From an uncultured Acidobacteriota bacterium (lineage in GTDB: Bacteria; Acidobacteriota; Thermoanaerobaculia; Multivoradales; UBA5704), in assembly GCA_963770895.1 (NCBI GenBank), contig CAVYRF010000001.1, positions 704,481-768,480 of the forward strand: a stretch of DNA of 64,000 nt. Direction: 5' to 3'. Below, piece after piece: positions 3,767 to 51,786 of this stretch (position 1 is the first letter of the stretch; every line of letters begins with the position of its first letter). The translations under genes and the position numbers were made by a program. Under the pieces are notes generated by a model. The model ran no database searches, was not told the DNA's origin, and worked only from the letters and a program-made list of their open reading frames with translations.

Positions 3767-4108
3767 TCATCTCCGCGGCAGCACATCCAATCCCACCAGC
3801 ACCCGTTCCGTCTGTGACAGGTCGCCGATGATCTTGCGCATCGGCGCCGGCAGCTTCCTTACCAGGGTCGGGATCGCCAGGATCTGGTCCGCCCGCGCCA
3901 GGTGCGGGTTGGCCATGAGGTCGATCACCTCGACCCGATATCTCCCTGCAAGATGCTCGCCGCAGATCTTTTTGAGGTTGCTGAGCGCCGCCATTGAGCG
4001 CGGGGTCTGGCCGGCGACGTAGAGCCGCAGGTCCCAGGTTCCCTCCTCCTGCTCGGGCGGGAGCGATGGAGGCGATGGAGACGAGGTGGTCTGGTCGTGG
4101 TTGCTCAT
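3767..4108 (-). CDS. kaiB: Circadian clock protein KaiB
   Basis: 113-aa product from the internal Met of a longer artefactual ORF: MSNHDQ...[85 protein letters not shown]. This is the canonical thioredoxin-like KaiB signature (LYVAG.TP...IPTLV...RKIIGDLS). The start ATG (4108-4106) overlaps the kaiC stop TGA (4107-4105) as ATGA. Confidence 0.9.
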
Positions 4109-5892: not shown

Positions 5893-5909
5893 GGCGTTGG
5901 TCTGGCGCC

Positions 5910-13359: not shown

Positions 13360-13431
13360 GCGGCTCCTCCTTGGTCAGGCCCCGGATCGCGTGGGAGGCT
13401 CGGCCGGCATGGTATATTCTCCGCGCTCTTT

Positions 13432-14088: not shown

Positions 14089-14162
14089 CGTTTTCGGTCT
14101 GGCGCCGGTCTTAGGCTGCCAGCCATCGATTTGAGTGTTCGGAGGTTGAGAAGGAGCTGCAG

Positions 14163-20052: not shown

Positions 20053-20637
20053 CCGATCTCAAGCGCCTTGCCAGTGAACCGCCAGCAGCGGAGCTCCCGC
20101 CAGCGCCAGCGCCAGCCCAGGCCGCCGCCGTGAGCCCTCAGTATATTGCGCCGGCACCCTCGGCAGTGTGCCGCCGGGTCGGCCGGAAGGTAGCGCGCAA
20201 TGGCGGTGGGCCGGTGCCTGGGCGGCGATGCGCCGGCGAGGTGGACCGGCGGGTCGGTCGGTTGGTCGATCGGGCGGCCGAGTGGACCGGTGGACTGTGT
20301 GGTGATCGGTCGGCGGGGCGGACCGGTGGGGCCGGTGGGTCAGTTGGCGATCGGTCGGCGGCTTGGATCGGGGGTCGATGGGTCAGGCGTGCAATCAGGG
20401 CGAAAAAGGTAGCGGGTCGAGGGGGAGGTCGGGTGGTGGACCGGTGCACCGGCGACGATGGTTCGGCGGAGGGGACCGGGCGGGTAAGTCGGTTGGCGAA
20501 GCGATGGAATGATGGGGCTGCGGCGGACCGTTGGGTCGGCCGGCGAAGGGTCGGCGGGGCAATGGAGCGTTGGGCAGGTGGGGTGGTGGGCAGGGGGTGT
20601 GGGATGTGAGTCTGGCCGATGGGATAAAATTGCCGCC

Positions 20638-38468: not shown

Positions 38469-39227
38469 ATGAAGACCGTGTCCCGCCTGCTGTCCGTCGC
38501 CGCCTACGGCCTGGTGCGACCGTGGATGCGGCGCCGGGTGGGCCGGACGGTGCTCGAATCGATCGATGGCGTGCCGCTGGTGGTGTTGCCCCAGGTGCTC
38601 AACCCGCGCGTCTTCCGCACCGGCGCCTGGCTGGCGCAGGCGGTGCCGCCGGCTGCCGCGCCGGCGGCCACCCGCCGCGCTCTCGACATGGGCACCGGCT
38701 CGGGCATCGGCGCCATCTTCGCCGCCCGCCGCGGCTATCGCGTGACGGCGCTCGACATCAATCCCCACGCCGTCCGGTGCGCTCGCGTGAACGCCCTGCT
38801 CAACGGCCTGGACCAGCAGATCGACGTGCGGCAGAGCGACCTGTTCGACGCCGTCGCCGGCGAACGCTTCGACCTGGTGCTGTTCAATCCGCCATTTTTC
38901 CCCGGCACGCCGCGCGATCCGCTGGACGCGGCCTGGCGCAGCCACGACGTCATCGAGCGCTTCACCGCCGGCCTGCCCGCGGCGCTGGCGCCGGGAGGGT
39001 CGGCCCTGCTGCTGCTGTCCAGCGCCGGCGGCTCCGACAGCAAGCTCCTGGCCCACGTCCCCGCCCAGCTGCGCGTCGCGCCGGTCTTCCGCCGCGGCTT
39101 TGCCGGCGAAACGATCACGCTCTTTGCCGCCACCTGGGTCCCCGCCGCCAGCGCCAGCGCGGCCCAGGCCGGCGCCGCCCGGCCGCTGGCGGCGCCCGCG
39201 CTGTCCTCCGTGGAGGTGATGCGATGA
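38469..39227 (+). CDS. Class I SAM-dependent methyltransferase (HemK/PrmC-like small-domain family, NPPF motif)
   Basis: 252 aa from an internal Met MKTVS. Motif I is ALDMGTGSGIGAIFAARRG. The motif IV region is DLVLFNPPFFPG. It is the first gene of a five-gene translationally coupled + strand operon. Confidence 0.7.
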   Translation: MKTVSRLLSVAAYGLVRPWMRRRVGRTVLESIDGVPLVVLPQVLNPRVFRTGAWLAQAVPPAAAPAATRRALDMGTGSGIGAIFAARRGYRVTALDINPHAVRCARVNALLNGLDQQIDVRQSDLFDAVAGERFDLVLFNPPFFPGTPRDPLDAAWRSHDVIERFTAGLPAALAPGGSALLLLSSAGGSDSKLLAHVPAQLRVAPVFRRGFAGETITLFAATWVPAASASAAQAGAARPLAAPALSSVEVMR

Positions 39228-40816
39228 GCGCCAGCGTTGCCTCGGCAGGCGTGTCGGGCGCGGCGGCGGGCCGCCAGCGGGTGCTGCTGGTCAATCCGCG
39301 CATGTGCTCGCGCCGCTCGATGCGCCTGCCGCTGTCGCTGCTGTCGCTGGGTTCGGTCCTGGAAGGGCGCTACGACTACCAGCTGATCGACGGCAATGTC
39401 GATCCCGACGCCATCGGCACCGCGCTCGCCGCGCTGGCGCAAGGCGACCATGCAATGGTGGGGGTGAGCGTCATGCCGGGGCCGCAGGTGGGGCCGGCGA
39501 TCGCGCTGTCCACCGCGGTGCGCGCGCACTTCCCGCAGGTGCCGATCGCCTGGGGCGGGTACTTCCCGACCCTCTACCCGGATTCGGCGATCAACGCTTC
39601 GTACGTCGACTACGTGGTGCGCGGCCAGGGCGAAGAAACCCTGCTGGAGCTGCTGGCGCGGCTGCCCGACGCCGGGCCGCCGGCGCCGCCATCCGACTCG
39701 GCTGCCGACGCCGGCGCCCTGGCCGGCCTGGCGGGCCTGACCTTCAAGCACGACGCCGAAGTGCGGCACAACGCCGACCGCCACTTCAAGCCGCCGGACG
39801 ACCTGCCGCCGCTGCCCTACCAGCGCCTGGCCGACGTCACGCCCTACCTGCGCCCGACGTTCATGGGGGCGCGCACCGGCGTGCACCAGGCGGCCCTGGG
39901 CTGCCGCTATCGCTGCAGCTTCTGCGGCGTCGTCACGATGTTCAACGGCGTCACCCGCCTGCAGGGAGCGTCGCGCCTGGCGCAGGCGGTGACGACGCTG
40001 CGCGACAAGTACGGCGCCGACTCGATGCAGTACTACGACAACAATTTCTTCGACCGCGAAGAGAGCAGCGTGCCGCTGCTCGAAGAGCTCGCCCGCCTGC
40101 AATCGCCCTGGTGGTGCTATGCGCGCGCCGACACCATGGCGGGCTTTTCGACCCGCACCTGGGAGCTCATCCGCCAGAGCCGCATGCGCATGGCCTACAT
40201 CGGCGCCGAAGCGGGGAGCGACGCGGCGCTGCGCCAGATGAAAAAGGGGTCGCGCGTCGAAGACACGTTGGAGGTCGCGCGCCTGTGCCGCGCCTACGGC
40301 GTGGTGCCCGAGCTGTCGTTCGTGCTCGGCGGCCCCGACGATCCCGAAGGCGAGGTCGAGCACACCCTGAGCTTCATCAAGCGCATCAAGCAGATCCACC
40401 CCACCTGCGAAGTCGTGCTGTACTTCTACAGCCCGACGCCGCGGCGGGAAGCCGCGTCAGAGGCGACGCGGGCCAGCGGCCTGCGCCTGCCGGTGATGGA
40501 CAACTACGGCCCGGACGGCCCGCCGCTGCCGACGACGCCGCTCGAATGGACCGAGCGCAAGTGGATCGACTACGTGTGCCACCAGGACGCGCCCTGGCTG
40601 TCGCCGCGCCTGCGCCGCCGCGTGCGCGACTTCGCGACCGTGCTCGGCTGCCGTTTCCCGACCGTGCAGGACGCCAAGACCCCGGACTGGGGCAAGGCGA
40701 TCCTGCGCAACCTGTCCCGCTGGCGCTACAGCAGCGGCCTCTACGGCAGCCCCTGGGAGCTGGAGCTGGCCCGGCGCCTGGTGCCCTTGCGCCAGCCGCA
40801 GCGCGAAAGCCTGTGA
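39224..40816 (+). CDS. Cobalamin-binding (class B) radical SAM enzyme
   Basis: The ATG overlaps the previous stop (ATGA). The N-terminal B12-domain-like Rossmann region reads RVLLVNP...VGVSVMPGPQVG...IAWGGYFPTLYPD. The rSAM cluster is CRYRCSFCG. 530 aa. Confidence 0.85.
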   Translation: MSASVASAGVSGAAAGRQRVLLVNPRMCSRRSMRLPLSLLSLGSVLEGRYDYQLIDGNVDPDAIGTALAALAQGDHAMVGVSVMPGPQVGPAIALSTAVRAHFPQVPIAWGGYFPTLYPDSAINASYVDYVVRGQGEETLLELLARLPDAGPPAPPSDSAADAGALAGLAGLTFKHDAEVRHNADRHFKPPDDLPPLPYQRLADVTPYLRPTFMGARTGVHQAALGCRYRCSFCGVVTMFNGVTRLQGASRLAQAVTTLRDKYGADSMQYYDNNFFDREESSVPLLEELARLQSPWWCYARADTMAGFSTRTWELIRQSRMRMAYIGAEAGSDAALRQMKKGSRVEDTLEVARLCRAYGVVPELSFVLGGPDDPEGEVEHTLSFIKRIKQIHPTCEVVLYFYSPTPRREAASEATRASGLRLPVMDNYGPDGPPLPTTPLEWTERKWIDYVCHQDAPWLSPRLRRRVRDFATVLGCRFPTVQDAKTPDWGKAILRNLSRWRYSSGLYGSPWELELARRLVPLRQPQRESL

Positions 40817-42537
40817 CGGACACCCAGCCCGACAGGCTGCCGGCAGCGAAGCTGCCGCTGCGGCACGGCGCCTATGCGTGGCAGACGCGCTGGCGCCCCG
40901 GCGAGCTCGCCACCGCCCGCTTCATGCCCATGGGCCTCCACCTGGAGCTGGTCACCAACAGCCCGCCCCTCCTGGCTGCCGCCCGCCAGTGCTTCGGCGG
41001 CTACGGCGAGCCGGCGCCAGACCGCCCCGTCGATCTCACCCTGAGGCTCTACCAGCACTCCGTCGACGCGCCGGCGCCAGGCGCTGGCGTCGCTACGACC
41101 GCCGCTACGTCCGGCCACCTCGCCACGGCAACGGCCGCCGCCGCCAACCCGGCCGGCACCGCCGGCCTCCCCGACCTGGCCAACACCGCCAACCCCGCCG
41201 ACCAGGGGTTCAACGGGGGCAGCGTCGCGGCGATCCACCCAGTGAGGGCGGCTGCCCTCCCGGAGGCCGGGCCGCCCGGCGCCGCCACGTCCGGCAGCTG
41301 TGTCGCCGCAACCGCCGCCGGCGCCACCCCCGGCTCCGTCGCTGCAACCGCCATCCACGCCTCGACGACCGGCAACGCCGCTGCTGCAACCGCCATCGGC
41401 GCCGCCATGTCTGGCAGCTCTAGCGCAGCAACCGCTGCCGACGCTACGACCGGCAACTCCGCTGCTGCAGCCGCCATCGGCGCCGCCATGTCTGGCAGCT
41501 CTAGCGCAGCAACCGCTGCCGACGCTACGACCGGCAACTCCGCTGCTGCAGCCGCCATCGGCGCCGCCATGTCTGGCAGCTCCGTCGCCGCAACCGCTGC
41601 CGACGCTACGACCGGCAGCTCCAGTGCCGCAACCGCTGCCGACGCTACGACCGGCAGCTCTAGTGCAGCAACCGCTGGCGACGCCACGACCGGCAGCTCC
41701 GTCGCCGCCACCTCACCTGTCGCCGCGATGGCTGGTGCCGCCGCCGGCGGCCGGGACGTGCATTTCTTTGACGGCGGCGCCGCCGGCGCGCCGCTGTCCG
41801 CGCCGATCCTGCGCTGCGAGGGTCCGTATCTCTACCAGGCCAGCGGGTCTGACACGGTGATGGTGGCCGACCGCGGCGCCGGGGTCACCTTCGGCTACCT
41901 GGCCGCAGCGACCGTGGCCGATGCAGCGCACCTCACCTGGCACTACCTGTGGCCGGCGGTTTCCTATCACCTGGAATGCCGCGGTTTTGCCGGAGTGCAC
42001 GCCGCCGCCATCGCGCGGCGAGGCCGCGGGCTGCTGCTGCGCGGCCGCAGCGGCCAGGGCAAGACGACGCTCACCTATGCGGCCACCCGTCGCGGCTGGC
42101 AGGCCGTCAGCGAAGACATCGTATGGGTGGACGCCCGCGGCGCCACCTGGTGGGGCTCGCCCTGGACCTTCCACCTGCTGCCGGACGCCCGCCAGCTCTT
42201 TTCCGAGTTGAGCGGGCGCGGCGTCGCCCTGCAGCCCAACGGCGAAGTCAAAGTGGTGGTCGACATGGAATCCCTCTGGCCCGGCAGCACCCTGCCCAAG
42301 GCCGCGGCCGGCCCGGTGGTCATCCTGGAGCGCCGCCATGGCGGCACCAGCAGCCTGGTCACCCTCGACCCGGCCACAGCGCACCACGAATGGCTGGACG
42401 GCTGCGCCCGCCACGAGCGCCAGGCCCCCGGCTACGACCAGACGGTGGCGGACCTGCTCAGCAGAGGTTGCCACCGCCTCCACCTGGGAGACGACCTGGA
42501 CGGCGCCCTGGACCTGTTGGAGCCGCTCCTGCCATGA
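40813..42537 (+). CDS. HPr-kinase-related Ser/Thr kinase-like P-loop protein with internal Ala/Thr/Ser/Gly-rich tandem-repeat insert
   Basis: The GTG start overlaps the previous stop (GTGA); an alternative start is Met +38. The N-terminal domain reads YAWQTRWRPGELATARFMPMGLHLELV. The 230-aa low-complexity insert is encoded by perfect 81-bp tandem repeats. The C-terminal HprK-like domain carries GAGVTFGYL...HAAAIARRGRGLLLRGRSGQGKTTLTYAA (GxSGxGKT/S P-loop). Confidence 0.7.
   Translation: MTDTQPDRLPAAKLPLRHGAYAWQTRWRPGELATARFMPMGLHLELVTNSPPLLAAARQCFGGYGEPAPDRPVDLTLRLYQHSVDAPAPGAGVATTAATSGHLATATAAAANPAGTAGLPDLANTANPADQGFNGGSVAAIHPVRAAALPEAGPPGAATSGSCVAATAAGATPGSVAATAIHASTTGNAAAATAIGAAMSGSSSAATAADATTGNSAAAAAIGAAMSGSSSAATAADATTGNSAAAAAIGAAMSGSSVAATAADATTGSSSAATAADATTGSSSAATAGDATTGSSVAATSPVAAMAGAAAGGRDVHFFDGGAAGAPLSAPILRCEGPYLYQASGSDTVMVADRGAGVTFGYLAAATVADAAHLTWHYLWPAVSYHLECRGFAGVHAAAIARRGRGLLLRGRSGQGKTTLTYAATRRGWQAVSEDIVWVDARGATWWGSPWTFHLLPDARQLFSELSGRGVALQPNGEVKVVVDMESLWPGSTLPKAAAGPVVILERRHGGTSSLVTLDPATAHHEWLDGCARHERQAPGYDQTVADLLSRGCHRLHLGDDLDGALDLLEPLLP
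41371..41691 (+). repeat. Coding tandem repeats: 3 near-identical 81-bp units plus 2 x 39-bp sub-units (encoding (A)AMSGSSSAATAADATTGNSAAAAAIG repeats)
   Basis: The unit ggcaac(g/t)ccgctgctgca(a/g)ccgccatcggcgccgccatgtctggcagctctagcgcagcaaccgctgccgacgctacgacc is repeated at 41371, 41452 and 41533. Copies 2 and 3 are identical over their first 49 nt and diverge over the rest of the unit. Confidence 0.85.
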
Positions 42538-43721
42538 CGCTCGAAGCAATCGCGGACCAGGAGGCTACACCGCCTGCCGCCGCCGCCGCTGCCGGCGGGT
42601 CGCCTTCCGCCGCCGTCGCCGGTGGCGAGCCGCCACCCGGCGCTGCAGGAGACGCCGGGCGTCTGGCGTGGATGTGCGAGCGGCTGGCCGTTTGGGTGGT
42701 CGCCCCGCCGCCGCAGCCGCCGCCGGCGTGGCCGGCCGCGGCGTGGGAGGACTTTCGTGCCGCCACGCAGGTCCACGGCGTCGGCCCGCTGCTGGGGCGG
42801 CGCCTGGGCGACCGCCAGCCATGGTCGCAGGCGGCAGCCTGGCTTGGCGCCGAGCATGCCGCCAACCGCTTGCGCGTCGAGCGTCTGCACCAGGACTTGC
42901 GCGCGATCCTGGCGCGCTTTGCCGCCGCGGACGTGCCGCTCATGCCGCTCAAGGGCGCGGTGCTGGGGCCGCTCTATTATTCCGACCCCGCGGAGCGGCC
43001 AATGGCCGACCTGGACCTGCTGGTGCGCGCCGAAACGCTGGCGCAGAGCGCCCAGCTGCTGGTCGACATCGGCTATGAGGTGGTCTTTGAAGGCCGCAAA
43101 CACGTCAAGCTGGCGCCGCGCGGCGGCCGTCGCCGCCCGGTCAGCGACGCCGGCGGCGCCAGCGACGGCGACGTTGGCGCCGACGCCGGTGGTAGCCCCG
43201 GCCCCGGCCCCGGCGACCACGAGGCGGCCGGCGAGCACCCCGACAACCCGCGCTGGGTCGAGCTGCATCCGGCCTGCGGCGAATGGCTGGGGGACGAGCG
43301 CATCGATCTGACCGGCCCGATCTGGGCCGGCGCCCGCCGGCAGCCGCTGCTGGGCGAGCCGGCCTGGCTGCCCGACCCGGCGACCCATTGGCTCTACCTG
43401 TTGGTGCATGCCACCCACCACATCCTGATCAATCGCTTCCGTCTCATCCAGCTGCTCGACCTGCTGCTGCTTTGCCCGACGGACCTGTTGGGCGCCGCCC
43501 TCCAGGTCGAGCCGCCCGCCGCCGCGGCCGCCATGGCGCGCGCCCTGTACCCGCCTCTCGCGCTCCTCCAACGGTACTTCCCGGCGGGCGCCACCGCCGC
43601 CGCGACGGCCCTGCGCCAGGACTTGCGCGCGCGGCTGGCGCCCGGCTACGCGGCCTGGGCCGACGGCCTGGACCTGTTCCAGGCTTGCTATCTCGACGCC
43701 GCGCCGTGGAGGGCGCCATGA
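42534..43721 (+). CDS. Nucleotidyltransferase-family protein (pfam14907/NTP_transf_5-like)
   Basis: The ATG overlaps the previous stop (ATGA). 395 aa. The motif PLMPLKGAVLGPLYYSDPAERPMADLDLLV fits the G[SG]...D.D nucleotidyltransferase fold. The C-terminal region reads HWLYLLVHATHHILINRFRLIQLLDLLLL. Confidence 0.7.
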   Translation: MTLEAIADQEATPPAAAAAAGGSPSAAVAGGEPPPGAAGDAGRLAWMCERLAVWVVAPPPQPPPAWPAAAWEDFRAATQVHGVGPLLGRRLGDRQPWSQAAAWLGAEHAANRLRVERLHQDLRAILARFAAADVPLMPLKGAVLGPLYYSDPAERPMADLDLLVRAETLAQSAQLLVDIGYEVVFEGRKHVKLAPRGGRRRPVSDAGGASDGDVGADAGGSPGPGPGDHEAAGEHPDNPRWVELHPACGEWLGDERIDLTGPIWAGARRQPLLGEPAWLPDPATHWLYLLVHATHHILINRFRLIQLLDLLLLCPTDLLGAALQVEPPAAAAAMARALYPPLALLQRYFPAGATAAATALRQDLRARLAPGYAAWADGLDLFQACYLDAAPWRAP

Positions 43722-45148
43722 GCGAGCCTGGCGCCGTCAGCGAGCCGGGCACCGTCGGCGAGCAGGGTGCCGTCAGCGAGCCGGGCGCCGCCAGCGAGCC
43801 GGGCACCGTCAGCGAGCAGGGCGCCGTCAGCGGGCCGGGCGCGGTCAGAGCGCGGGGCGCCGTCAGTGGGCCGCGCGGCATGAGCGGTCAAGGCGCCATG
43901 AGCGAGCGCCCGGTGGTGGTGGTGGTGGGCGACGCCGTGGCGCCCACCGGCTTCGCGCGCGTGCTGCACAGCATTCTGGGGCGGCTCGCCGACCGTTACG
44001 AGTTCCATCACCTGGGGGTCAACTACGGCGGCCAGCCGCACGAGCACGCCTGGCAGATCTATCCCGCGGACGGCGGCGGCGACCTGCACGGCGTGCGGCG
44101 CGTGCGCGACCTGGTGGAAAAGGTGCGGCCCCGCCTCGTCTTCCTGCTCAACGACCCCTGGCTGATGGGCGGCTACCTCGACGCCTTGGGCGATTGCCGC
44201 GCCGGCATCAAGGTGATCGCCTACGCGCCGGTCGACGCCGGCCCGCTGGAGGCGGAGCTGGTGGCGCCGCTCACCGGCCTGGATCACCTGGTGCTCTATA
44301 CCCGCTACGGCCTGCAGGAAATGGAGGCGTCGGCGGCGCAGCTGCGCCGCCTGCGCCCCGACGCGGCCGCCTTCCCGGCGCTGTCGGTCGTGCCGCACGG
44401 CGTCGATTCGGACCTCTTCCGCCCGCTCGCCGGCCCGCCCACGGCGGCGGCGCCCGGCGACTTTGCCGCCTCCCGCGCCGCGGCGCGCCGCCAGCTGTTC
44501 GTCGACCCGGCGCTGCACGACGCCTGGATCGTCTTGAACGCCAACCGCAACCAGCCGCGCAAGCGCATCGACGCGACGATCAAGGGCTTCGCGCTCTTTG
44601 CGCGCGACAAGCCGCCCAACGTCCGCCTCTACCTGCACATGGGGATGGTCGATTGCGGCTGGAACGTGGTCGCCCTGGCGCGCCGTCACGGCATCGAAGA
44701 CCGGCTCATCCTGACCGCCGAGGAGCACTTCCTGCCGGCGGTCGCCGACGATCTGCTCAACCAGATCTACAACGCCTGCGACGTGGGCATCAACACCTCC
44801 CTGGGCGAGGGCTGGGGCCTGGTCAACCTGGAGCACGCCGCCACCGGCGCCGCCCAGGTGGTGCCCCGCCACAGCGCCTGCGCCGAGATCTGGGACGGCG
44901 CCGCCGAGCTCGTCGAGCCCGTCGCCAGCCTCACCATGGAAGGCCTGCTGACCGAAGGCCGCCTGGTCGGCCCCGAAGGGGTCGCCCGCGCCCTCGATCG
45001 CCTGTACACCGATCCCTCCCACCTGCGCCGGCTGTCCGCCGCCGCCTACCAGGTCGCCACCCGCCCCGAATACCGCTGGGACGACGTCGCCCGCCGCTGG
45101 GACGATCTCTTCCAGCAGATGCTGGCGGCCACCCCCACTGCCGTCTGA
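43718..45148 (+). CDS. GT4-family (GT-B) glycosyltransferase with N-terminal S-E-P-G hexapeptide repeats
   Basis: The ATG overlaps the previous stop (ATGA). The N-terminus MSEPGAVSEPGTVGEQGAVSEPGAASEPGTVSEQGAVSGPGAV is encoded by 18-bp repeats. An alternative start lies at MSERPVVVV. The GT-B donor-binding region is INTSLGEGWGLVNLEHAATGAAQVV (E-x7-E). Confidence 0.75.
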   Translation: MSEPGAVSEPGTVGEQGAVSEPGAASEPGTVSEQGAVSGPGAVRARGAVSGPRGMSGQGAMSERPVVVVVGDAVAPTGFARVLHSILGRLADRYEFHHLGVNYGGQPHEHAWQIYPADGGGDLHGVRRVRDLVEKVRPRLVFLLNDPWLMGGYLDALGDCRAGIKVIAYAPVDAGPLEAELVAPLTGLDHLVLYTRYGLQEMEASAAQLRRLRPDAAAFPALSVVPHGVDSDLFRPLAGPPTAAAPGDFAASRAAARRQLFVDPALHDAWIVLNANRNQPRKRIDATIKGFALFARDKPPNVRLYLHMGMVDCGWNVVALARRHGIEDRLILTAEEHFLPAVADDLLNQIYNACDVGINTSLGEGWGLVNLEHAATGAAQVVPRHSACAEIWDGAAELVEPVASLTMEGLLTEGRLVGPEGVARALDRLYTDPSHLRRLSAAAYQVATRPEYRWDDVARRWDDLFQQMLAATPTAV

Positions 45149-45283
45149 GAAAATCGCCGTTGATCTGACCCGCTACCACCGCCCCAGACCACTAGACGTG
45201 CGATCGGGGGGCGTGGTATCTTCTAAAACAAGCAGACCAATGTCGTCCTTCGATCCTGTTTGGATGGGGGAGAGGAGGTAAGC

Positions 45284-45589
45284 GTGGCGATTACGGTTGT
45301 CAATCAGTCGGTCGGTGCTCTGTCCTATACCGTGTTCGGCGGCTCGACTTCGGGTTCGGGCACGGGCGGGTCGGGCAGCAAGGGTTCGGGAACCACGGGC
45401 TCCGGTACCCACGGCTCGGGCGGCGGCTCGGGTGTCGTGGCTTCGGGCGTCGTCGGTCCGGGTGGCACCGCGTCCGGGATCCAGGTGGGTGCAGGCTCCT
45501 ATACCGTGGTCTTCGGGTGGAAAACCTTCCCCAGCTACACGGTTTCGGCCTCGGGTGTGGTCAAGGTGACGACGACCGTCCAGCCGTAG
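45284..45589 (+). CDS. Small 101-aa Gly/Ser/Thr-rich protein, candidate modification substrate
   Basis: Ideal SD (AGGAGG) 5 nt upstream of GTG. The product is VAITVVNQSVGALSYTVFGGSTSGSGTGGSGSKGSGTTGSGTHGSGGGSGVVASGVVGPGGTASGIQVGAGSYTVVFGWKTFPSYTVSASGVVKVTTTVQP. Beta-strand-like ends flank a GS(T)-rich core. A lower-GC leader lies upstream. The gene is located between two convergent enzyme operons. Confidence 0.5.
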   Translation: MAITVVNQSVGALSYTVFGGSTSGSGTGGSGSKGSGTTGSGTHGSGGGSGVVASGVVGPGGTASGIQVGAGSYTVVFGWKTFPSYTVSASGVVKVTTTVQP

Positions 45590-45621: not shown

Positions 45622-46656
45622 GTGTCCAGACCTTCGCTGTTCGTCGTCTCGCTGCCGCGCTCTCTTTCGACGCTGCTCTACCACGCGATCCGCCAATCGC
45701 TGGCGTTGCGTGAGCCGCAGTGGACGACGGACGGGGAGATCCTCAACGTCCGTCGCTTTGCCTTTCTGGCGGAGGAGGGCGCGGTCGAGGGGGTGCGCTA
45801 CGTCCAGCGCGATCACGACGGGCCGCGCTTCGCGAAGCTCCTGGCCTTCCTCGACCAGGTGACCCAGGCTCAAGGCTTTGCCTACAAAGACGTCATCCAG
45901 CCCTTCGTCGTCGGCGAATGGCTGGCGCGCCAGAGCGCTCCGCCGGTGGGCGTGAACCGGCCCGCTGCAGCGGCCTCCTCCTCAGCCGCTGCCGAAGGCG
46001 CCACCGCCGCTGCGGCCGCCGCCGAGCGGCGCCGCTCGGCGTCATCGCCGAACAGCCCCGCACGCCCCACACCAGCGGCGCCAGCCCCCGCGGCCGTCTC
46101 TGCCTCCAGCGCTGCGGCACCCGCCCCGCGCGTCCTGGTCATCGACCGGCCGGTGCCTGACGTGGCCGCCTCGTTGCTCGATCGCGGCTGGCTGTATCCA
46201 GCGCTGGCCGCCGACGGCGCGGCGGCGCTTCCAGAGGCCGCGCGCGCGGTGGTCGCCGGTGCCCACACCGCCGACCTGTCGGCATTCCTCCCGCCCGACC
46301 AGGTGGAACGGGCGCTGGTGTCCGGCTTGCTGCGCGCCCGCCGGACCCTGGCCCGCCTGGCGGACCCGCCCCCGGCATGCGCCAGCCGGTGGGTGGTCTA
46401 CGACCAGCTGATCCACGACGAAGCGCCCTTGCATCAGGCCTTGCAGGCGCTCTACGGCGAAGACGTCCCGCCGCCCGCCTATCTGGACGACGAGTTCTGT
46501 CGCCAGCGCGATCAGGTGCTGCGCCGCCGCGCCAGCCCGCTCTACCAGCGCCTGCAGGCGCTCAGCGACGAGCTGGCGACCACGATGCTGGCCGCGCCGC
46601 CGGCCGCCGCCATCGGCGCCGGCGTCGCCGCGGCGCCACGGCGCCGCACGCAGTAG
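45622..46656 (+). CDS. Hypothetical protein with weak sulfotransferase-like N-terminal motif
   Basis: Candidate GTG start (VSRPSLFVVSLPRSLSTLLYHAIRQ). SLPRSLSTLL resembles the sulfotransferase 5'-PSB motif (G.P[KR]SGTT) but is degenerate (G to S, G to L). A long Ala/Pro-rich linker follows, and the C-terminal region has normal composition. The listed ORF start (45517) overlaps the preceding small gene and is unlikely to be real. Confidence 0.45.
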   Translation: MSRPSLFVVSLPRSLSTLLYHAIRQSLALREPQWTTDGEILNVRRFAFLAEEGAVEGVRYVQRDHDGPRFAKLLAFLDQVTQAQGFAYKDVIQPFVVGEWLARQSAPPVGVNRPAAAASSSAAAEGATAAAAAAERRRSASSPNSPARPTPAAPAPAAVSASSAAAPAPRVLVIDRPVPDVAASLLDRGWLYPALAADGAAALPEAARAVVAGAHTADLSAFLPPDQVERALVSGLLRARRTLARLADPPPACASRWVVYDQLIHDEAPLHQALQALYGEDVPPPAYLDDEFCRQRDQVLRRRASPLYQRLQALSDELATTMLAAPPAAAIGAGVAAAPRRRTQ

Positions 46657-46895: not shown

Positions 46896-48320
46896 TCAGG
46901 ACAGGCGTTGTGCCGGGCGCAGGAAGTTGGCGACCTGCTTTTCGATCGGGGCGGCGTAAAAGTCGCGGTCGCAGCGCCAGCGGGCCAGCGCGCGCAGCGG
47001 CCGGCTCCAGGGTCGGCCGGAATCCCAGGCCAGCTGCTGGAAGAATTTGAAGCGCTCGATCAGCCGGTACTTTTCGGGCGACACCCACGGACCGATCGAG
47101 CCCACGAAGTCAAATTCGCTCCATTCGTCCAGCGTGCAGGGGAGGGTGAAGCCGGCGGCCACCGCGTTCTGGGTGATCGAGGTGCCGGGATAGGGTTTGA
47201 AATAGAAAATCGGCGTCTGGAAGTCGGGGCTCATGGCGCGCAGCCGCTTGACCACCTGCAGGGTGGCGCGCACGTTGTCCTCGGTCTCTTCCGGGAAGCC
47301 GACGATGAAGGGGAAGTTGACCGCCACGCCGAACTTGCGACAGCGCTCGGCGACAAAAAAGACCTGCTCCAGCTTGATGTCTTTTTTGATGCGATCCATC
47401 ATTTCCTGCGAGCCCGATTCGACGCCGACCAGCAGGCGGCGCAGCCCCGAGCGCTTGCACTTGGCGAAGACCTCTTCGCTCATGCGCTGGCCCTGGTCGG
47501 CGCGCATGGTGGCGGCCCAGGTGATGGGGAGCTTGCGGCGGATGAGCTCTTCGGCGACCGCTTCGACGCGCTGGGCGTAGGTGAAAAAGGTTTCGTCCTG
47601 GAAGTTCACGTCGTCGTAGCGCGAGCGGTGCCACAGCGCTTCGAGCTCTTCGCCCATGCGCTCGGGCGACAGGCCGGTCCACTTGCGCTGGTAGACGAAC
47701 GGATCGGCGCAAAAGGCGCAGCGGAAAGCGCACCCCTGCGACGAGATGTAATCCAGCTGGCGCTTGCCCTTGAGGCGATAGTACGGTTCGATGTCGATCA
47801 GGCCGTAGTTGTGGACCGCCAGGGTGTTGACGTCGGCCAGCGGGCGGGCCGTGTTCACCTGCGCGGCGCCGTCCTCGCGGTAGGTGCAACCCTGGCAGCC
47901 GGTCAGTGGCCGCCCTTCAGCCAGGCGCTCGACGATCTCGGCAAAGGTGATTTCCCCCTGGCCTTGCACGGTCACGTCGACGCTCGGTTCCGCCAGGCAT
48001 TCGCGGCCGAACATCGACGGGTGCCAGCCGCCCCAGACGACCGGCAGGTCGGCGCGGCTGGCCTTGGCGGCGCGGCTGGCCGCAACCGCGTCGGCGATCG
48101 GCGCCCCGGTGAGCACCGTGACGCCCAGGCAGAGCGCGCCTTCCAGCTCCGCCACCAGGGCGCGGTGTGCCGCTTCGGGGTTTTTGGCCAACCGGGCGTC
48201 CACGACCACCACCTGGTAGCGCTCGGGATCGAGGTGCGATCCGATGGTGAGCAGCGCCAGCGGCATGGTGTAAAAGACCGCGGTCGGGTTGTACAGCACG
48301 ATTTTGTGGCGGCGACTCAT
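46896..48320 (-). CDS. Cobalamin-binding (class B) radical SAM enzyme
   Basis: 474 aa from an internal Met MSRRHKIVLYNP. The B12-like N-domain reads LPVVWGGWHPSMF. The rSAM cluster is CAFRCAFC. The ATG overlaps the upstream stop (ATGA). Confidence 0.85.
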   Translation of the reverse strand: MSRRHKIVLYNPTAVFYTMPLALLTIGSHLDPERYQVVVVDARLAKNPEAAHRALVAELEGALCLGVTVLTGAPIADAVAASRAAKASRADLPVVWGGWHPSMFGRECLAEPSVDVTVQGQGEITFAEIVERLAEGRPLTGCQGCTYREDGAAQVNTARPLADVNTLAVHNYGLIDIEPYYRLKGKRQLDYISSQGCAFRCAFCADPFVYQRKWTGLSPERMGEELEALWHRSRYDDVNFQDETFFTYAQRVEAVAEELIRRKLPITWAATMRADQGQRMSEEVFAKCKRSGLRRLLVGVESGSQEMMDRIKKDIKLEQVFFVAERCRKFGVAVNFPFIVGFPEETEDNVRATLQVVKRLRAMSPDFQTPIFYFKPYPGTSITQNAVAAGFTLPCTLDEWSEFDFVGSIGPWVSPEKYRLIERFKFFQQLAWDSGRPWSRPLRALARWRCDRDFYAAPIEKQVANFLRPAQRLS

Positions 48321-49399
48321 AAGGGCTCCGGGGTCAATGCCAGCGTGCAGACGCATTTGCGACAGATCGCATCGCGGTCGGTGTCCAGGCCGCGGCGCCA
48401 GGCGAGCGCCTGCGGCGAATTGACGATCGCGTCCAGGCTTGCCGCCTGCCGCAGGTTGCCGAGCGGCGGCTGGAAGAAGCACGGCCGCACCGTGCCGTCG
48501 GCTTCGATCACCGTCGACACCCACGGCGCGTTGCAGCGATGCGGCGGAAAATCGCCGTGGCCGCACAGTGCGGCGTAGTAGTCGTAGAGCCGCGCCCGCA
48601 GCTTCGCCGCGCCCTCGACGATGAAGCCGGATGCGAAGTCGGCCGCGTGCTCGCGTTCCAGGGCGTCCAGCTCGCCGGCCAGCCGCGGCAGCTCCTCTTC
48701 GAGCAGCGCCACCTGGCCGGCGCGCGCCGCTTCCCAGGGCTGCGGCCGGTTGAAGGCGTCGCTGCTGACGTCGGCGGCCAGCAGGCTCAACCAGTTCAGG
48801 CCGATCGCGCGGGCCGCCGTGACGGTGCCGCGCAGGTGGGCGAAGTTGGCCCGCTGGACGGTGCAGCGCCCGCCGATCGTCAGCTGAGGCGCGGCTTGGC
48901 GCACCGCCGCCACCCCGTCGGCCAGCTTGGCGAAAGCGCGCGGCAGGTTGCGGATGTGATCGTGCACGGGCTGCGGCCCGTCCAGGCTGACGATCACTTC
49001 GGAGCAGTAGGCGGCGACCTGGGTCGCGTCGCGCCGCAGCAGCAGACCGGTGGACAGCAGGGTGATCGCGATGCCGGCGCGCCGCAGGTGCTCGCACATC
49101 TCCCACAGGTTGCGGTGCAGCAGCGCTTCGCCGCCCGACAGCGCGACCTGGCGCACCCCCATGCGCTGCCATTCGGCAACCCACTGTGCCACCTCGGCCG
49201 CGCCCAGCTCCTGCTTGCCCGGATCGCGCCAGATGTCGCACATCAGGCAGCGGCAGTTGCAGCGGCTGTGCGGGAACAGGATGACGATCGGCAGCCGCTC
49301 GACCGGTTGGGGCCGCGGCAACCCGTCGGCCGCCCCGCCGCTCCACGCGTTGGCCGGCAGCTCGGCGGCCGGCAGCACCGGAAGCACGGTCGAGCTCAC
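48317..49399 (-). CDS. Radical SAM enzyme with C-terminal SPASM/twitch-type auxiliary Fe-S domain
   Basis: GTG start overlapping the upstream stop (GTGA); 360 aa. The N-proximal rSAM cluster reads ILFPHSRCNCRCLMCDIW. The C-terminal Cys-rich region (GDFPPHRCNAPWVSTVIEADGTVRPCFF...CRKCVC) is typical of SPASM domains. Confidence 0.8.
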   Translation of the reverse strand: MSSTVLPVLPAAELPANAWSGGAADGLPRPQPVERLPIVILFPHSRCNCRCLMCDIWRDPGKQELGAAEVAQWVAEWQRMGVRQVALSGGEALLHRNLWEMCEHLRRAGIAITLLSTGLLLRRDATQVAAYCSEVIVSLDGPQPVHDHIRNLPRAFAKLADGVAAVRQAAPQLTIGGRCTVQRANFAHLRGTVTAARAIGLNWLSLLAADVSSDAFNRPQPWEAARAGQVALLEEELPRLAGELDALEREHAADFASGFIVEGAAKLRARLYDYYAALCGHGDFPPHRCNAPWVSTVIEADGTVRPCFFQPPLGNLRQAASLDAIVNSPQALAWRRGLDTDRDAICRKCVCTLALTPEPL

Positions 49400-50385
49400 C
49401 GCCGCTCCAACTCCAGCAGGTAATGGTCGGCCAGCCAGGGCAGCGGCGGCCAGGTTTCGGCACGCCGCTCCCAGCGCCCGAGCAGACGCAGCAGGCGCGG
49501 GTGGCGCGCCGCCCAGCCTTCGGCGTAGGTGGGCGGCAGCAGCGCGCCGACCGCCGCGCGCCGGCGCAGGCGGAAGGCGGGACCGAACAGGCGCCGCAGC
49601 GCGCCGACCGACGGATAGCGGATGGTCAGGCCGCGCCAGCGCGTGCCGCCCGGCCGCAGCCGGCGAAAGGCGCGCCCCGGCTGCGCGTGGCCCAGGTACC
49701 AGGCCCACTCCCACGGCACCAGCGGGCCCATCACGCAAACGACCGCCATGGCGCCCGGCCGCAGGTTTGCCGCCAGCCAGCCCGCCAGCTGCCGCAGGTC
49801 GGCTGGCGCCACGCAGTTGAGGCCGCCGAAGTTGGACAGCACCCCGTCGAACGGCCGCGGCGCCGCCGGTGTGGCGCCGGCAGCAGGTGCGGCAGCGGGT
49901 ACAGGCGCGGTGGCGAGTACAGACGCGACCGCGGGCATAGGCGCAGCGGCGGGTACAGACGCGGGCGCGGGTGCCGGGTCCGCCGGCGGTGATTGCTGGG
50001 GGTGCCAGGGTTGCCGGGGCTGCCGGGTCAGCTGTTCGATGGTCTGGTGGCGCAGATCGACCCGATCGCCCAGGCCGGCGCTCGCGATCTTGTCGCCGGC
50101 GCGTTCCAGCATGCCGGCGGCGGCGTCGATGGCGGTGACGCGCACGCCGCGGCGAGCCAGGTACAGGGCGTCTTCGCCGGTGCCGCAGTTGAGCTCCAGC
50201 ACGTGGCTGCCGGGGGCGAAGCAGGCGTCCAGCCGCCGCCAGACCGCCTGGCGCATCTGCGTGCCGATGGCGCTGCCGGTGAAGCTGGCGTCGTAGGACG
50301 CGGCCATGCGGTCGAACGCGGTGGCACCCGTGGCGTCGCCATCGCGGCGCGCCGGCAGCACGGGGAGGACGGCCGGTTCGGTCAT
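49396..50385 (-). CDS. Class I SAM-dependent methyltransferase
   Basis: Motif I is VLELNCGTGEDALYLARRGVRVTAIDAAAGML. A low-complexity Pro/Ala insert is present. The ATG at 50385 lies 1 codon after the upstream stop. An alternative GTG at 50391 overlaps that stop (GTGA). Confidence 0.75.
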   Translation of the reverse strand: MTEPAVLPVLPARRDGDATGATAFDRMAASYDASFTGSAIGTQMRQAVWRRLDACFAPGSHVLELNCGTGEDALYLARRGVRVTAIDAAAGMLERAGDKIASAGLGDRVDLRHQTIEQLTRQPRQPWHPQQSPPADPAPAPASVPAAAPMPAVASVLATAPVPAAAPAAGATPAAPRPFDGVLSNFGGLNCVAPADLRQLAGWLAANLRPGAMAVVCVMGPLVPWEWAWYLGHAQPGRAFRRLRPGGTRWRGLTIRYPSVGALRRLFGPAFRLRRRAAVGALLPPTYAEGWAARHPRLLRLLGRWERRAETWPPLPWLADHYLLELERR

Positions 50386-50387
50386 CG

Positions 50388-51785
50388 TCACGGCGCCGCC
50401 GGCGACTCCTCGGGCCAGGAGAGCAGCGCCTGGTGCGCCGCTTCCGCCATCTGCAGCTTTTCGGCGGCGTCCGCCGGGTTGTCGGACTGCAGGCGGGCGG
50501 CGGCGACGCTGTTGCGCAGCCACCGGTCGGCCTGTTCGTAGTAGGCGCGCGAGCGCTGGCCGCGCAGCCGGTAGTCGCGGTCGGTGGCGGTATCCCAGCT
50601 CTTGTCGAGCTGCACGCGGTCGGCCACCTGGCGGAAGTAGGCGGTGTTCTTGATCGGGTAGGCGACGGTGGTGAAGAAGATGTTGGGGTTGGCCTTTTTG
50701 ACGTGCTCGACGGTGGCTTCGATGTCGGCCAGCGTTTCGCCCTGGTAGCCCCACATCAGGAACATGCCGACTTCGATGCCGTGGCGCTGGGCGGCGTGGG
50801 TCGCCCACTGCACCTGCTCGGCGGTGACGCCCCGATCCATGGCGTCCAGGATGCGCTGGCTGCCGCTTTCAGAGCCGATCCAGATGCGGTAGCAGCCCAT
50901 TTCGGCGAGCGTCGCGATCACTTCGTCCTTGAGCAGCCGATCGGCGCGCGAAATGGTTTCGAAAGGGCGCACCAAGCCGCGCTTCTTGAGCAGGCCGGCG
51001 AACTCGAAGAGCCAGCGGTGGTGGATGGTGAACACGTCGTCGGCGTACCACAGCTGTTCGGGCTGGTAGGCTTCGACGATGTGCGCCACTTCGTCGGCGC
51101 AGTCGAGCGCGCTGCGCCGGCGATGGGTGTAGCCGAACACGGCGTGCGAGCACCATTTGCAGCGATACGGGCAGCCGCGCGCGGTGATCAGGTTGACGCT
51201 GCCCATGCCGTGGTGGGTGTGCCAAACGTCGACGTAGCGGGCGATGTCGATCTGCTCGCGATCGGGCCAGGGGAGGCTGTCCAGGTCGGCGATCTGTTCG
51301 CGGTCCGGATTGGTGACGACCTCCCCTTCTTCGTCGCGGAAGACCGTGCCGTGCAGGCCGTGCAGACGGTGCGGACCGCGCAGGGCGAGCGCCGGCAGCA
51401 GTTCCGCGAGCGTCGCTTCGCCTTCGCCCACCACCACGACGTCGGCGCCGTGGGCCAGGTATTCGGCCGGGTAGTTGGCCGATTCGGGGCCGCCGAGCAC
51501 CACCGTCCAGCCGTGCTGCCGCGCGGCGGCGATGATGGCGAGGATCGACGCGCGGGTCATCAGGTTGGTGTAGATCCCCACCACGCCGCCGGGAGTGGCG
51601 GCAAGGCGCTGGCGCAGCGCGGCGCGCTCGGCGAACGTGGAATCGAAGATCTCGACGCTGAAACCGGCGCGACGCAGATACGAAGAGATGTAGAGCAGCC
51701 CCAGCGTCGGGTAGGGCTTCATGATCTGCAGCTCTTTGGGATCTTCGTGCAGGAAGTAGCCGTGGGTCAGCAGGATGTCGGCCAT
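50388..51785 (-). CDS. Cobalamin-binding (class B) radical SAM enzyme, tandem paralog
   Basis: 465 aa. The N-terminus is MADILLTHGYFLHEDPKELQIMKPYPTLGLLYISSYLRRAGFSVEIFD. The rSAM cluster is CPYRCKWCSH. Confidence 0.85.
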   Translation of the reverse strand: MADILLTHGYFLHEDPKELQIMKPYPTLGLLYISSYLRRAGFSVEIFDSTFAERAALRQRLAATPGGVVGIYTNLMTRASILAIIAAARQHGWTVVLGGPESANYPAEYLAHGADVVVVGEGEATLAELLPALALRGPHRLHGLHGTVFRDEEGEVVTNPDREQIADLDSLPWPDREQIDIARYVDVWHTHHGMGSVNLITARGCPYRCKWCSHAVFGYTHRRRSALDCADEVAHIVEAYQPEQLWYADDVFTIHHRWLFEFAGLLKKRGLVRPFETISRADRLLKDEVIATLAEMGCYRIWIGSESGSQRILDAMDRGVTAEQVQWATHAAQRHGIEVGMFLMWGYQGETLADIEATVEHVKKANPNIFFTTVAYPIKNTAYFRQVADRVQLDKSWDTATDRDYRLRGQRSRAYYEQADRWLRNSVAAARLQSDNPADAAEKLQMAEAAHQALLSWPEESPAAP

Positions 51786-51786
51786 A

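Follow-up and report, generated by a model that had tools for sequence, protein, structure and literature searches.

Organization of the locus

The window, by which we mean the entire stretch of 64,000 nucleotides that was analyzed, contains a compact cassette of seven genes (~8 kb) in the order SAM methyltransferase, B12 radical SAM enzyme, kinase, PF14907 nucleotidyltransferase, GT4 glycosyltransferase, small protein and sulfotransferase-fold protein (Table 1). The five genes upstream of the small gene are translationally coupled by 4-nt overlaps. The small gene follows the GT4 stop codon (45148) after a gap of 135 nt, and its AGGAGG Shine-Dalgarno sequence, at 45273-45278, is spaced by 5 nt from the GTG start codon. 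The GC content across 45100-45299 is 0.585, compared with 0.73 for the whole window. An initial annotation of this DNA had proposed a 101-aa product, which we recover exactly as quoted, preceded by a perfect Shine-Dalgarno sequence and a leader of lower GC content, and these features are all present.

Table 1. Coordinates of the cassette genes and adjacent features in the window
Feature	Position	Strand	Remarks
Class I SAM methyltransferase (MTS/HemK-like)	38469..39227	+	PF05175, 7.7e-16; first cassette gene
B12-binding radical SAM enzyme (class B)	39224..40816	+	PF02310, PF04055
HprK/ScmC-like P-loop kinase	40813..42537	+	Weak PF07475, TIGR04355, TIGR04352 and TIGR04249 matches
PF14907 (NTP_transf_5) nucleotidyltransferase-fold enzyme	42534..43721	+	PF14907, 2.4e-30
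GT4 glycosyltransferase	43718..45148	+	PF13692, PF00534; 63-71% identity to orthologues
Intergenic leader of the small gene	45149..45283	+	Lower GC; holds Shine-Dalgarno AGGAGG
Small-protein gene	45284 (GTG) to 45589 (TAG)	+	101 aa; cassette member
Putative divergent sulfotransferase-fold protein	45622..46656	+	344 aa; gene directly after the small gene
Convergent accessory operon	46896..53367	-	B12-rSAM, rSAM/SPASM, methyltransferase, B12-rSAM, B12-rSAM

A motif scan of the leader and flanks of the small gene found no sigma-70-like promoter or intrinsic terminator motif, and the leader RNA has an ordinary fold (z = -2.1). Rfam searches returned zero matches in the window and in the related loci L001, L002 and L004, and none for a cobalamin riboswitch close to the TonB receptor gene lying 3' of the cassette in L002-L004. 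The small protein of the window contains neither cysteine nor acidic residues, is rich in Gly, Ser, Thr and Val and is almost uncharged. As judged by inspection only, its N-terminus (MAITVVNQSVG) is devoid of basic or hydrophobic signal-peptide features, in agreement with the absence of a signal peptide noted initially, and the product is made in the cytoplasm.

The enzymes initially assigned to the neighboring genes are supported by family matches for the methyltransferase, radical SAM enzyme, kinase, nucleotidyltransferase and GT4 glycosyltransferase, and by fold search and hhalign for the sulfotransferase-like gene. NCBIfam matches of the methyltransferase all fall below their cut-offs, and the protein is 69% identical to its L001 orthologue. 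This first position of the cassette is occupied by another class I type (UbiE-like) in L002-L005, and both types are present in L021-L023. No NCBIfam cut-off is reached by the B12 radical SAM enzyme either; its identity to the orthologues in L001 and L004 is 72-75%. The kinase carries a low-complexity insertion of ~225 aa in its N-terminal half and also weakly matches PF27840; it scores 16.5-19.4 bits against ScmC (TIGR04249, cut-off 125) and 28-34 bits against HprK-related kinase A/B (TIGR04352/TIGR04355, equivalog cut-off 200). In alignments, the Walker A motif LLLRxxSGxGK[ST]T and an AED motif are invariant in the kinase family, as is the PLKG ... RPMADLDLL motif, corresponding to G[GS] + DxD, in the PF14907 enzymes, and from these motifs the kinase and the nucleotidyltransferase look catalytically intact. 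The GT4 protein has an N-terminal extension of GAVSEPG-type repeats, its conserved part starting at ~43880.

The last gene of the cassette encodes a protein with Ala/Pro-rich insertions that a fold search places in the sulfotransferase / P-loop-kinase fold. Profile searches of Pfam and the PDB with this protein found nothing, and hhalign against a canonical sulfotransferase domain gives E = 6.5e-5 (64% probability), with PRSLSS aligned on PRSGTS and a Leu in place of Gly in the putative 5'-PSB loop. Using Pfam and NCBIfam, we detected no RRE/PqqD-like recognition domain in the cassette and found no protease or exporter genes in its conserved part.

Conservation of the small gene and of its position

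Is the small open reading frame a genuine gene? High-GC genomes are rich in spurious open reading frames, 21 overlapping ones are present in this region, and the codon-position GC of the small gene (0.56/0.66/0.78) is atypical for the window, all of which could point to an untranslated chance reading frame. However, GC3 peaks in the called frame, and the atypical GC1 and GC2 are due to the content of Ser, Thr, Val and Gly. Furthermore, approximately 45 small homologues of 73-129 aa exist, 37 of them at E of 4e-14 or better and 8 more distant ones from an exhaustive profile search, in which length, start and Shine-Dalgarno sequence are conserved (the related loci that were examined have GGAGG or GAGG 5' of the start). 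Indels in the family are all in frame, and comparison with the window copy gives dN/dS values of 0.10-0.35; synonymous sites are close to saturation. The comparative data refute a chance reading frame, to which we assign practically no probability, and confirm at the sequence level that the small open reading frame is a genuine, conserved gene under selection.

Searches of Pfam and NCBIfam with the small protein gave no family at E of 0.01 or better, and sources that name it at all give only "hypothetical protein". All 47 family members are free of cysteine. The N-Q-S sequence at residues 7-9 is marked invariant; distant homologues have K, E or G at the position of Gln8. Named-organism loci that carry the cassette all belong to the Acidobacteriota; a supposed member from Clostridia (L007) was rejected as a spurious pattern match inside a 2925-aa open reading frame.

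The full seven-gene order is found in the window, L001-L005, L016, L019 and L021-L023, and the cassette order also surrounds small homologues detected by profile only (P0039, P0043). Where the contig reaches, 14 of the first 15 related loci have the GT4 gene before and the sulfotransferase-fold gene after the small gene; the upstream sequence of L010 is too short to judge synteny, and L009 keeps the downstream sulfotransferase-fold gene and has a divergent peptide ORF in place of GT4 upstream. Homologous small ORFs had been called for in syntenic loci elsewhere, and we find them in more than 20 loci, at identities down to ~37-50%. As they hold the same position in the cassette, the objection that the ORF lacks conservation in syntenic loci clearly fails. 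The small gene is the only universal non-enzyme gene of the cassette. Small ORFs beside distant sulfotransferase-fold homologues (L017, L018) were considered as well and are unrelated to this family.

This position argues against the small protein being an unrelated passenger, such as a structural or self-assembling beta-protein of the envelope or matrix, for which the location in the cassette would be meaningless. A Gly/Ser/Thr/Val-rich, almost uncharged protein without cysteine does recall some fiber-forming or surface proteins, and the profile also matches repeat stretches of very large proteins (P0044-P0054). Nonetheless, the gene keeps its place in clades that have entirely different flanking genes (Nramp/DtxR, TonB receptor/DedA, PCMT methyltransferases, GGDEF), the protein is without a signal peptide and, with the L007 match being spurious, our survey found no family member outside the cassette. 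We therefore regard a passenger as highly improbable.

Predicted fold of the small protein

An AlphaFold2 (AF2) model suggests a beta-hairpin (residues 1-19), a disordered (GSGxx)n loop (~20-49) and five beta-strands (50-95). Both termini are predicted to contribute to one 7-strand beta-sandwich, with strand pLDDT values of ~72-78, and the loop, modeled as disordered over residues 22-48, sits between strands 2 and 3; overall confidence is moderate (mean pLDDT 61.5). In the family alignment the termini hold 28 invariant columns. The number of GSG copies in the tandem-repeat loop ranges from ~2 to 13 (L012, P0043), and serine is the sole constant side chain there. The C-termini read ...TVQP, ...SVKP, ...SAKK or ...SAQT. 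The two strand-like hydrophobic ends described initially are the most conserved parts of the protein and, as a correction to that description, are predicted to pack into one sandwich. The small protein is thus predicted to be a beta-sandwich mini-protein with a floppy Gly-Ser-Gly repeat loop, and since its termini are conserved and predicted to pack together, it would be better described as a folded mini-protein bearing a repeat loop than as a leader-core peptide.

The fold also bears on whether the small gene encodes a classical RiPP precursor, in which one conserved end would be the leader and the other the follower, with the B12 radical SAM enzyme, methyltransferase and kinase acting on the Gly-Ser core before proteolytic release of a peptide. 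The short gene adjoins B12 radical SAM and methyltransferase genes, with weak matches to RiPP C-methyltransferases (TIGR03975, ApyD), kinases and nucleotidyltransferases are known RiPP tailoring enzymes, and the variable middle looks like a variable core. On the other hand, this core differs in copy number and not in sequence type, both ends are strongly conserved and predicted to form one domain, and a length of 73-129 aa with structure at both ends does not resemble known leader-core layouts. Of the features generic to RiPPs, the clustering of a short gene with enzymes is found here, whereas a leader and core, an RRE and the means of proteolytic release are not. The protease, the exporter and the RRE/PqqD domain are all missing from the conserved cassette, and we consider a classical precursor improbable. 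To us, the mini-protein looks more akin to a small glycoprotein than to a leader-core RiPP.

The convergent operon and other peptide candidates

The convergent radical SAM operon had been put forward as a partner of the small ORF. It is present in one clade only (window, L001, L019, L022) and absent from L002-L005, L016, L020 and L021, which places the rSAM/SPASM operon outside the conserved unit. As it contains no cysteine, the small protein would also be a poor SPASM/thioether substrate; the core cysteines of sactipeptides and ranthipeptides have no counterpart in any of the 47 family members. A separate 54-aa peptide, Cys-rich and with a GG leader, is encoded in L001 and L019 and is a better candidate substrate for the convergent radical SAM enzymes in these two loci. 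As a universal cassette substrate it was rejected, for neither the window nor L002-L005 encodes it. Methylation of Gln8 by the HemK-like enzyme was considered and dropped too, because the first methyltransferase is of the UbiE-like type in L002-L005 and Gln8 is not kept in distant homologues, which have K, E or G there.

Comparison with known systems

Precedent for an HprK-like kinase and a nucleotidyltransferase acting on serine, as suggested in the initial annotation, comes from lasso peptide tailoring: the HprK-type kinases PsmK and PadeK phosphorylate a ribosomal peptide on a serine, the "uncharacterised NTP transferase" PsmN adds hexose(s) to the phosphoserine of pseudomycoidin in a DxD-dependent manner, and sulfotransferase genes accompany PsmK/PadeK-type clusters (PMC6993621, PMC8498205). 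Like the cassette, these systems (paeninodin with PadeK; pseudomycoidin with PsmK and PsmN) combine an HprK-family kinase, a DxD NTP transferase, a sulfotransferase-type gene and a ribosomal substrate, and an intact P-loop HprK-like kinase plus a DxD nucleotidyltransferase are common to both. PsmN, which shares the DxD motif, may belong to PF14907 like the cassette enzyme. The closest ScmC-like/PF14907 pairs outside the cassette (~45% identity, Anaerolineae, L025) adjoin PqqD, Transglut_core3 and Asn-synthase lasso genes. The differences are nevertheless substantial. Lasso cyclase, B1 (PqqD) and B2 (transglutaminase-core) genes are absent from the window cassette and all the related loci, being present only close to distant kinase homologues in L025. 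The cassette is also devoid of an ABC exporter gene, and its kinase remains well short of the cut-offs of the HprK, HprK_rel_A/B and ScmC families. A lasso core comprises ~20 aa with one C-terminal serine, whereas the candidate here is folded, 73-129 aa long and has many internal GSG serines. In addition, the cassette contains B12 radical SAM, GT4 and methyltransferase genes beyond the lasso tailoring set.

Serine-rich repeat glycoproteins (SRRPs) of Gram-positive bacteria carry tandem repeats and are O-glycosylated in the cytoplasm by the adjacently encoded glycosyltransferases GtfA and GtfB (PMC6291802, PMC6973325). SRRPs such as Fap1 and GspB share with the cassette candidate that a dedicated Ser-repeat protein is encoded beside a glycosyltransferase. 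GtfA belongs to CAZy family GT4. In contrast, SRRPs are very large and have a signal peptide, an LPXTG anchor and SecA2/SecY2 export, none of which is seen in the small protein or the loci. Their repeats are of the SAS[ET] type compared with GSG here, their systems are without kinase, nucleotidyltransferase, sulfotransferase-fold and radical SAM genes, and their Asp genes are absent from the cassette loci.

SynChlorMet (ScmC, the PqqD-like ScmD and the rSAM/SPASM enzymes ScmE and ScmF) is a presumed peptide-maturation cassette that, as in our loci, brings together an HprK-related protein, of unknown function, and radical SAM enzymes. It differs in having a PqqD-like protein and two SPASM enzymes, where our cassette has no PqqD and a core B12 radical SAM enzyme; a SPASM gene occurs in our loci only in the accessory one-clade operon. 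We know of no precursor assigned to SynChlorMet or to the HprK-related kinase A/B systems.

Sugar-phosphate on the serines of Ser-rich repeats occurs in Leishmania proteophosphoglycans and as GlcNAc-1-P-Ser in Dictyostelium, an end product like that proposed below for the cassette. The likeness is by analogy only: the eukaryotic systems are secretory, and unrelated Golgi phosphoglycosyltransferases transfer sugar-1-phosphate in a single step. Literature searches found no description of this cassette, and together with the Pfam and NCBIfam results they agree with the initial impression that it fits no described class.

A possible role for the mini-protein

What might the mini-protein do? Because in soil Acidobacteriota it always lies within the same seven-gene cassette, it is most likely decorated by the cassette enzymes. 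We propose, as quite possible if just short of probable, that it is the dedicated scaffold of the cassette, whose loop serines would be phosphorylated and would then receive a sugar on the phosphate and further decoration. Linkage and analogy are what suggest a substrate. The sandwich would act as a handle for enzyme recognition and the loop serines as the modification sites. First, the HprK/ScmC-like P-loop kinase may phosphorylate the serines of the GSG units; second, the PF14907 enzyme may put a sugar or another nucleotide-activated group on the phosphate, as PsmN does; third, the GT4 glycosyltransferase may extend the glycan or add more sugar; and fourth, the sulfotransferase-fold protein, the SAM methyltransferase and the B12 radical SAM enzyme may decorate the glycan or the protein. 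The outcome would be a small protein phosphoglycosylated at several sites and not a cleaved peptide. Conserved termini together with a variable, disordered Ser-repeat loop fit a displayed modification loop in the predicted structure, and the gap and strong Shine-Dalgarno sequence of the small gene, set against the coupled enzyme genes, are as expected for a substrate produced in larger amounts than its enzymes. A more specific version, in which the kinase, an NTase-fold phosphoglycosyl transferase and the GT4 enzyme furnish the GSG serines with methylated and/or sulfated phosphoglycan chains at multiple sites on an Acidobacteriota-specific "proteophosphoglycan" scaffold that undergoes no leader cleavage, would be a new kind of ribosomal product and appears to us rather unlikely.

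Several observations speak against a scaffold. The Gly-Ser run may simply serve as a flexible linker, the apparent lack of an RRE/PqqD-like domain does not favor a scaffold, and lasso kinases use a C-terminal serine, whereas the small proteins end in P, K, T or Q and have their candidate serines within the chain. Alternatively, the mini-protein may be an accessory subunit, that is a beta-sandwich adaptor, chaperone or carbohydrate-binding module working with the sulfotransferase-fold protein or GT4, and the product of the cassette may then be a glycan, a glycolipid, a small molecule or another non-protein compound. Linkage is tightest to the sulfotransferase-fold gene, at 3-30 nt in many loci, and is kept in L009. 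Between the window and L004 the small protein is 54% identical and the enzymes 46-72%; conservation about equal to that of the enzymes fits an accessory subunit as well as a scaffold. Related kinase/nucleotidyltransferase pairs in L024 and L026 adjoin polysaccharide genes (Polysacc_synt, PMT, GT4), so that the cassette enzymes could act on a glycan or lipid, and the window cluster itself runs on into hexapeptide acetyltransferase, polysaccharide deacetylase, GT4 and GT2 genes. However, it is hard to see why an adaptor would require a GSG repeat that varies in copy number and has serine as its one constant side chain, the distant sulfotransferase-fold homologues in L017 and L018 lack any such small partner, and a gap and a strong Shine-Dalgarno sequence set the small gene apart from the translationally coupled enzyme genes. 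We view an accessory subunit, and likewise a non-protein product, as somewhat unlikely.

In conclusion, the small-protein family is unannotated and the cassette uncharacterized. If the mini-protein is indeed a substrate, it would offer a defined and easily expressed target for the HprK/ScmC-like kinases, PF14907 enzymes and the divergent sulfotransferase-fold family, three enzyme families that are widespread and whose substrates are mostly unknown. Should the scaffold proposal be true, phosphoglycosylation by a kinase and a nucleotidyltransferase, known only from the tails of lasso peptides, would reach the multi-site modification of a folded protein, and the cassette would produce an unknown class of modified protein in the Acidobacteriota, which abound in soil and are difficult to culture.

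Results

Judged from its sequence, the small gene, which encodes a Gly-Ser-loop mini-protein, is a real gene that founds a small new family. Translation recovered the same 101-aa product that the initial annotation had described, and the ideal Shine-Dalgarno site claimed for it is present as AGGAGG, 5 nt upstream of the GTG start. The lower-GC leader was likewise confirmed, as the 135-nt gap behind the GT4 gene has 58.5% GC versus 73% for the window, and within the called frame the third codon positions have the highest GC. A public gene call exists for the window's own copy (P0176), and the protein has no match in Pfam or NCBIfam. Among 5.8 billion proteins, a word-indexed search retrieved 37 homologues of 82-101 aa (E 2e-47 to 4e-14), none with a Pfam domain and all, where the source gives a name, called "hypothetical protein". 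An exhaustive profile search with the family against 1.84 billion cluster representatives gave just 19 matches, about 10 of which are small proteins, some of them more distant members with lengths of 73-116 aa; the remainder, repeat stretches inside very large proteins, are probably compositional. Across 17 loci compared at the DNA level, all length differences are in frame, and dN/dS relative to the window copy ranges from 0.10 to 0.35, synonymous sites being almost saturated. The related loci that were examined have GGAGG or GAGG ahead of the conserved start.

The two ends are the conserved parts of the protein (28 invariant columns in the family alignment), reading MAITIVNQSVGxIxYTIFGGSxSGSG at the N-terminus and GSGVxASGxIPxSGTASGIxVSGxPSYTVVFGWxxFPSYTVSASGVVTIxTSxK at the C-terminus. 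They are separated by a variable number of G-S-G-x(1-3) units: the shortest members have about 2 GSG copies, the window protein has 6, homologue P0043 has 10 (as PSGSGVI heptads) and the 129-aa protein of locus L012, (GSGTG)x7, has 13. Cys is absent from the family, acidic residues are nearly so, and each member has 2-4 basic residues. AlphaFold2, run on the family alignment, predicts seven strands (residues 2-7, 13-19, 50-57, 62-67, 72-77, 84-88 and 91-95; pLDDT ~72-78 in the strand blocks, overall mean 61.5) and disorder at residues 22-48 (pLDDT < 50). Both ends thus form one predicted fold, and neither an RRE nor a protease or exporter was detected in the cassette, which makes a classical cleaved RiPP, as the RiPP-like arrangement initially suggested might imply, improbable. 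Of the 47 family members, 45 have an N-x-S/T motif at residue 7 that varies at x as well as at S/T (NQS, NKT, NET, NQT) and may represent either a modification (glycosylation-type) sequon or an Asx-turn.

Features of the window and of related loci (L-numbers); coordinates without prefix refer to the window
Feature	Coordinates	Strand	Remarks
KaiC-like double ATPase, adjoining hybrid histidine kinase	4108-6741	-	
FkbM-methyltransferase/GT4 fusion	11446-13374	-	
SCO1/SenC, cytochrome c/periplasmic-binding protein, UbiE-like methyltransferase	14115-17807; L022:1-3730		
PEP mutase family protein	19225-20058	-	
NRPS	22104-34448	+	4114 aa; 3 AMP-binding, 4 condensation, 4 PP-binding and thioesterase domain
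SAM methyltransferase	38469-39227		
B12-binding radical SAM	39224-40816		
HprK/ScmC-like kinase	40813-42537		
PF14907 nucleotidyltransferase	42534-43721		
GT4	43718-45148		
Shine-Dalgarno site	45273-45278		
Small gene	45284-45589	+	GTG to TAG; 101 aa
N-x-S/T motif, residues 7-9	45302-45310		
Sulfotransferase-fold gene	45622-46656		344 aa; 32 nt after small gene
Convergent rSAM/SPASM operon	46896-53367		
54-aa ORF	L001:3613-3777; L019:3452-3616		directly 5' of cassette methyltransferase
54-aa ORF, partial	L009:1-51	-	
71-aa secreted Cys-rich ORF	L001:9567-9782		signal peptide and 12 Cys
TonB-dependent receptor, DedA/VTT protein	L002:10999-13518; L003:8338-10845; L004:10996-13649; L015:3365-5926		directly 3' of cassette
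Binding protein, tyrosinase, methyltransferase	L021:107-4251		

The position of the small gene is conserved. In the window, the five genes upstream of it overlap by 4 nt each, as ATGA or GTGA. The initial annotation had proposed a search for syntenic homologues, and among the first 15 genuine related loci, where the contig is long enough, 14 carry GT4 upstream and the same unknown gene downstream; in L009 only the downstream gene is kept and the upstream place is taken by a divergent peptide ORF, and the upstream sequence of L010 is too short to judge the GT4 position. The complete seven-gene order recurs in L001-L005, L016, L019 and L021-L023, and P0039 and P0043, two distant homologues, led to some of these loci. 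Named organisms among the cassette loci are Acidobacteriota or Thermoanaerobaculia MAGs, so that the window, too, probably comes from an acidobacterium.

Genes beyond the cassette differ from clade to clade: the window, L001 and L019 have Usp/Nramp/DtxR and the convergent rSAM operon; L002-L004, L015 and L016 have a TonB-dependent receptor and DedA/VTT protein; L020 has PCMT methyltransferases and L022 a GGDEF protein. The rSAM/SPASM operon, initially counted as part of the arrangement, is clade-specific and so lies outside the conserved unit. A better candidate substrate for it than the Cys-free small protein is, from its sequence, a 54-aa peptide of L001 and L019 (MKKSVKKLVLHRESLRLLARPDLAAAAGG-NYTAPLSCETICGLICPQPPRTQDC), absent from the window and L002-L005, which resembles a classic RiPP precursor in that its leader is of GG type (MKKSVKKLVLHRESLRLL...AAAGG) and its core rich in Cys (NYTAPLSCETICGLICPQPPRTQDC). 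The 71-aa ORF between GT4 and the small gene occurs only in L001. The TonB-dependent receptor/DedA-VTT pair of one clade may serve cobalamin import for the B12-rSAM enzyme or product uptake; no cobalamin riboswitch was found in L002 and L004. The SCO1/SenC trio adjoins the cassette on its 5' side in L022 and lies ~20 kb away in the window, with NRPS, Usp, Nramp and DtxR intervening, which suggests insertion or rearrangement in the window's lineage; L021 has the same binding protein and methyltransferase. The FkbM-methyltransferase/GT4 fusion is homologous to separate genes beside the cassette in L002-L005.

The cassette kinase and nucleotidyltransferase look functional from their motifs. Kinase homologues share an invariant LLLRxxSGxGK[ST]TLxYAA Walker A followed by AED, which parallels the HprK/P active-site region, and PLKG and RPMADLDLL, which make up the G[GS]...DxD signature of Pol-beta-type transferases, are invariant among the nucleotidyltransferases. 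The downstream gene product has no sequence-level match in Pfam or PDB. Its "sulfotransferase-like" label finds support at the level of fold: a canonical Sulfotransfer_3/1 domain is naturally fused to this type of domain in P0092 and P0116, and hhalign pairs its PRSLSS loop and RPxxDVAxxML with canonical PRSGTS and RDPRETVSSML (E = 6.5e-5). With Leu in place of the loop Gly, its activity is uncertain. The fusions (~561-565 aa, metagenomic), with a PRSGTS loop in the canonical and PRSLSS in the divergent domain, suggest that the two domains work as a pair. More distant members of the downstream protein's family, in L017 and L018, stand alone, without cassette or small protein. Three window proteins bear large low-complexity insertions missing from orthologues: ~225 aa of Ala/Thr/Ser/Gly repeats in the kinase, N-terminal GAVSEPG-type repeats in GT4 and two Ala/Pro-rich inserts in the sulfotransferase-fold protein.

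Discussion

What is the role of the small protein in the cassette? It is the product of the only universal non-enzyme gene, the serine hydroxyl is the only constant functional group of its disordered tandem repeat, and its gene has its own strong Shine-Dalgarno site, whereas the enzymes are translationally coupled. On these grounds we tentatively favor the reading, close to the initial proposal, that it is the dedicated substrate or scaffold of the cassette. The specific chemistry is held with lower confidence: the kinase would phosphorylate loop serines, the NTase-fold enzyme would cap the phosphates and GT4 would elaborate them, with further decoration possibly added by the sulfotransferase-fold protein, the methyltransferase and the B12-rSAM enzyme. 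The main rival, which we consider less likely, is that the predicted beta-sandwich serves as an adaptor or a binding module in a pathway acting on a glycan or lipid, its most likely partner being the neighbouring sulfotransferase-fold protein.

As a scaffold-modifying system, the cassette would work most like a lasso peptide kinase/NTase(/sulfotransferase) tailoring module. Lasso peptide clusters of Firmicutes encode an HprK homologue that phosphorylates the precursor at its C-terminal serine, and for pseudomycoidin PsmN, an "uncharacterised NTP transferase" whose DxD motif is required, puts one or two hexoses onto the phosphate; sulfotransferase genes accompany such clusters (PMC8498205, PMC6993621). 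The cassette can also be likened to dedicated serine-rich-repeat glycoprotein systems, in which adhesins are O-glycosylated in the cytoplasm by glycosyltransferases encoded beside them (PMC6291802, PMC6973325). By their defining tests, however, it falls outside both systems and outside the ScmC and HprK_rel_A/B families, and full-text literature searches found no published description, in line with the initial view, which recognised no described class in it. The nearest ScmC-like/PF14907 pairs outside the cassette (~45% identity, Anaerolineae) adjoin PqqD, Transglut_core3 and Asn synthase genes in L025 and polysaccharide genes in L024 and L026, three loci in which no GS-rich ORF was found.

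In conclusion, ribosomal products tailored by a dedicated kinase/NTase/GT set are a known kind, and what is unusual here is the folded, repeat-bearing candidate scaffold. Although its central functional claim is one that we infer, the cassette, compact and testable, is a solid lead in a phylum that has been little studied.
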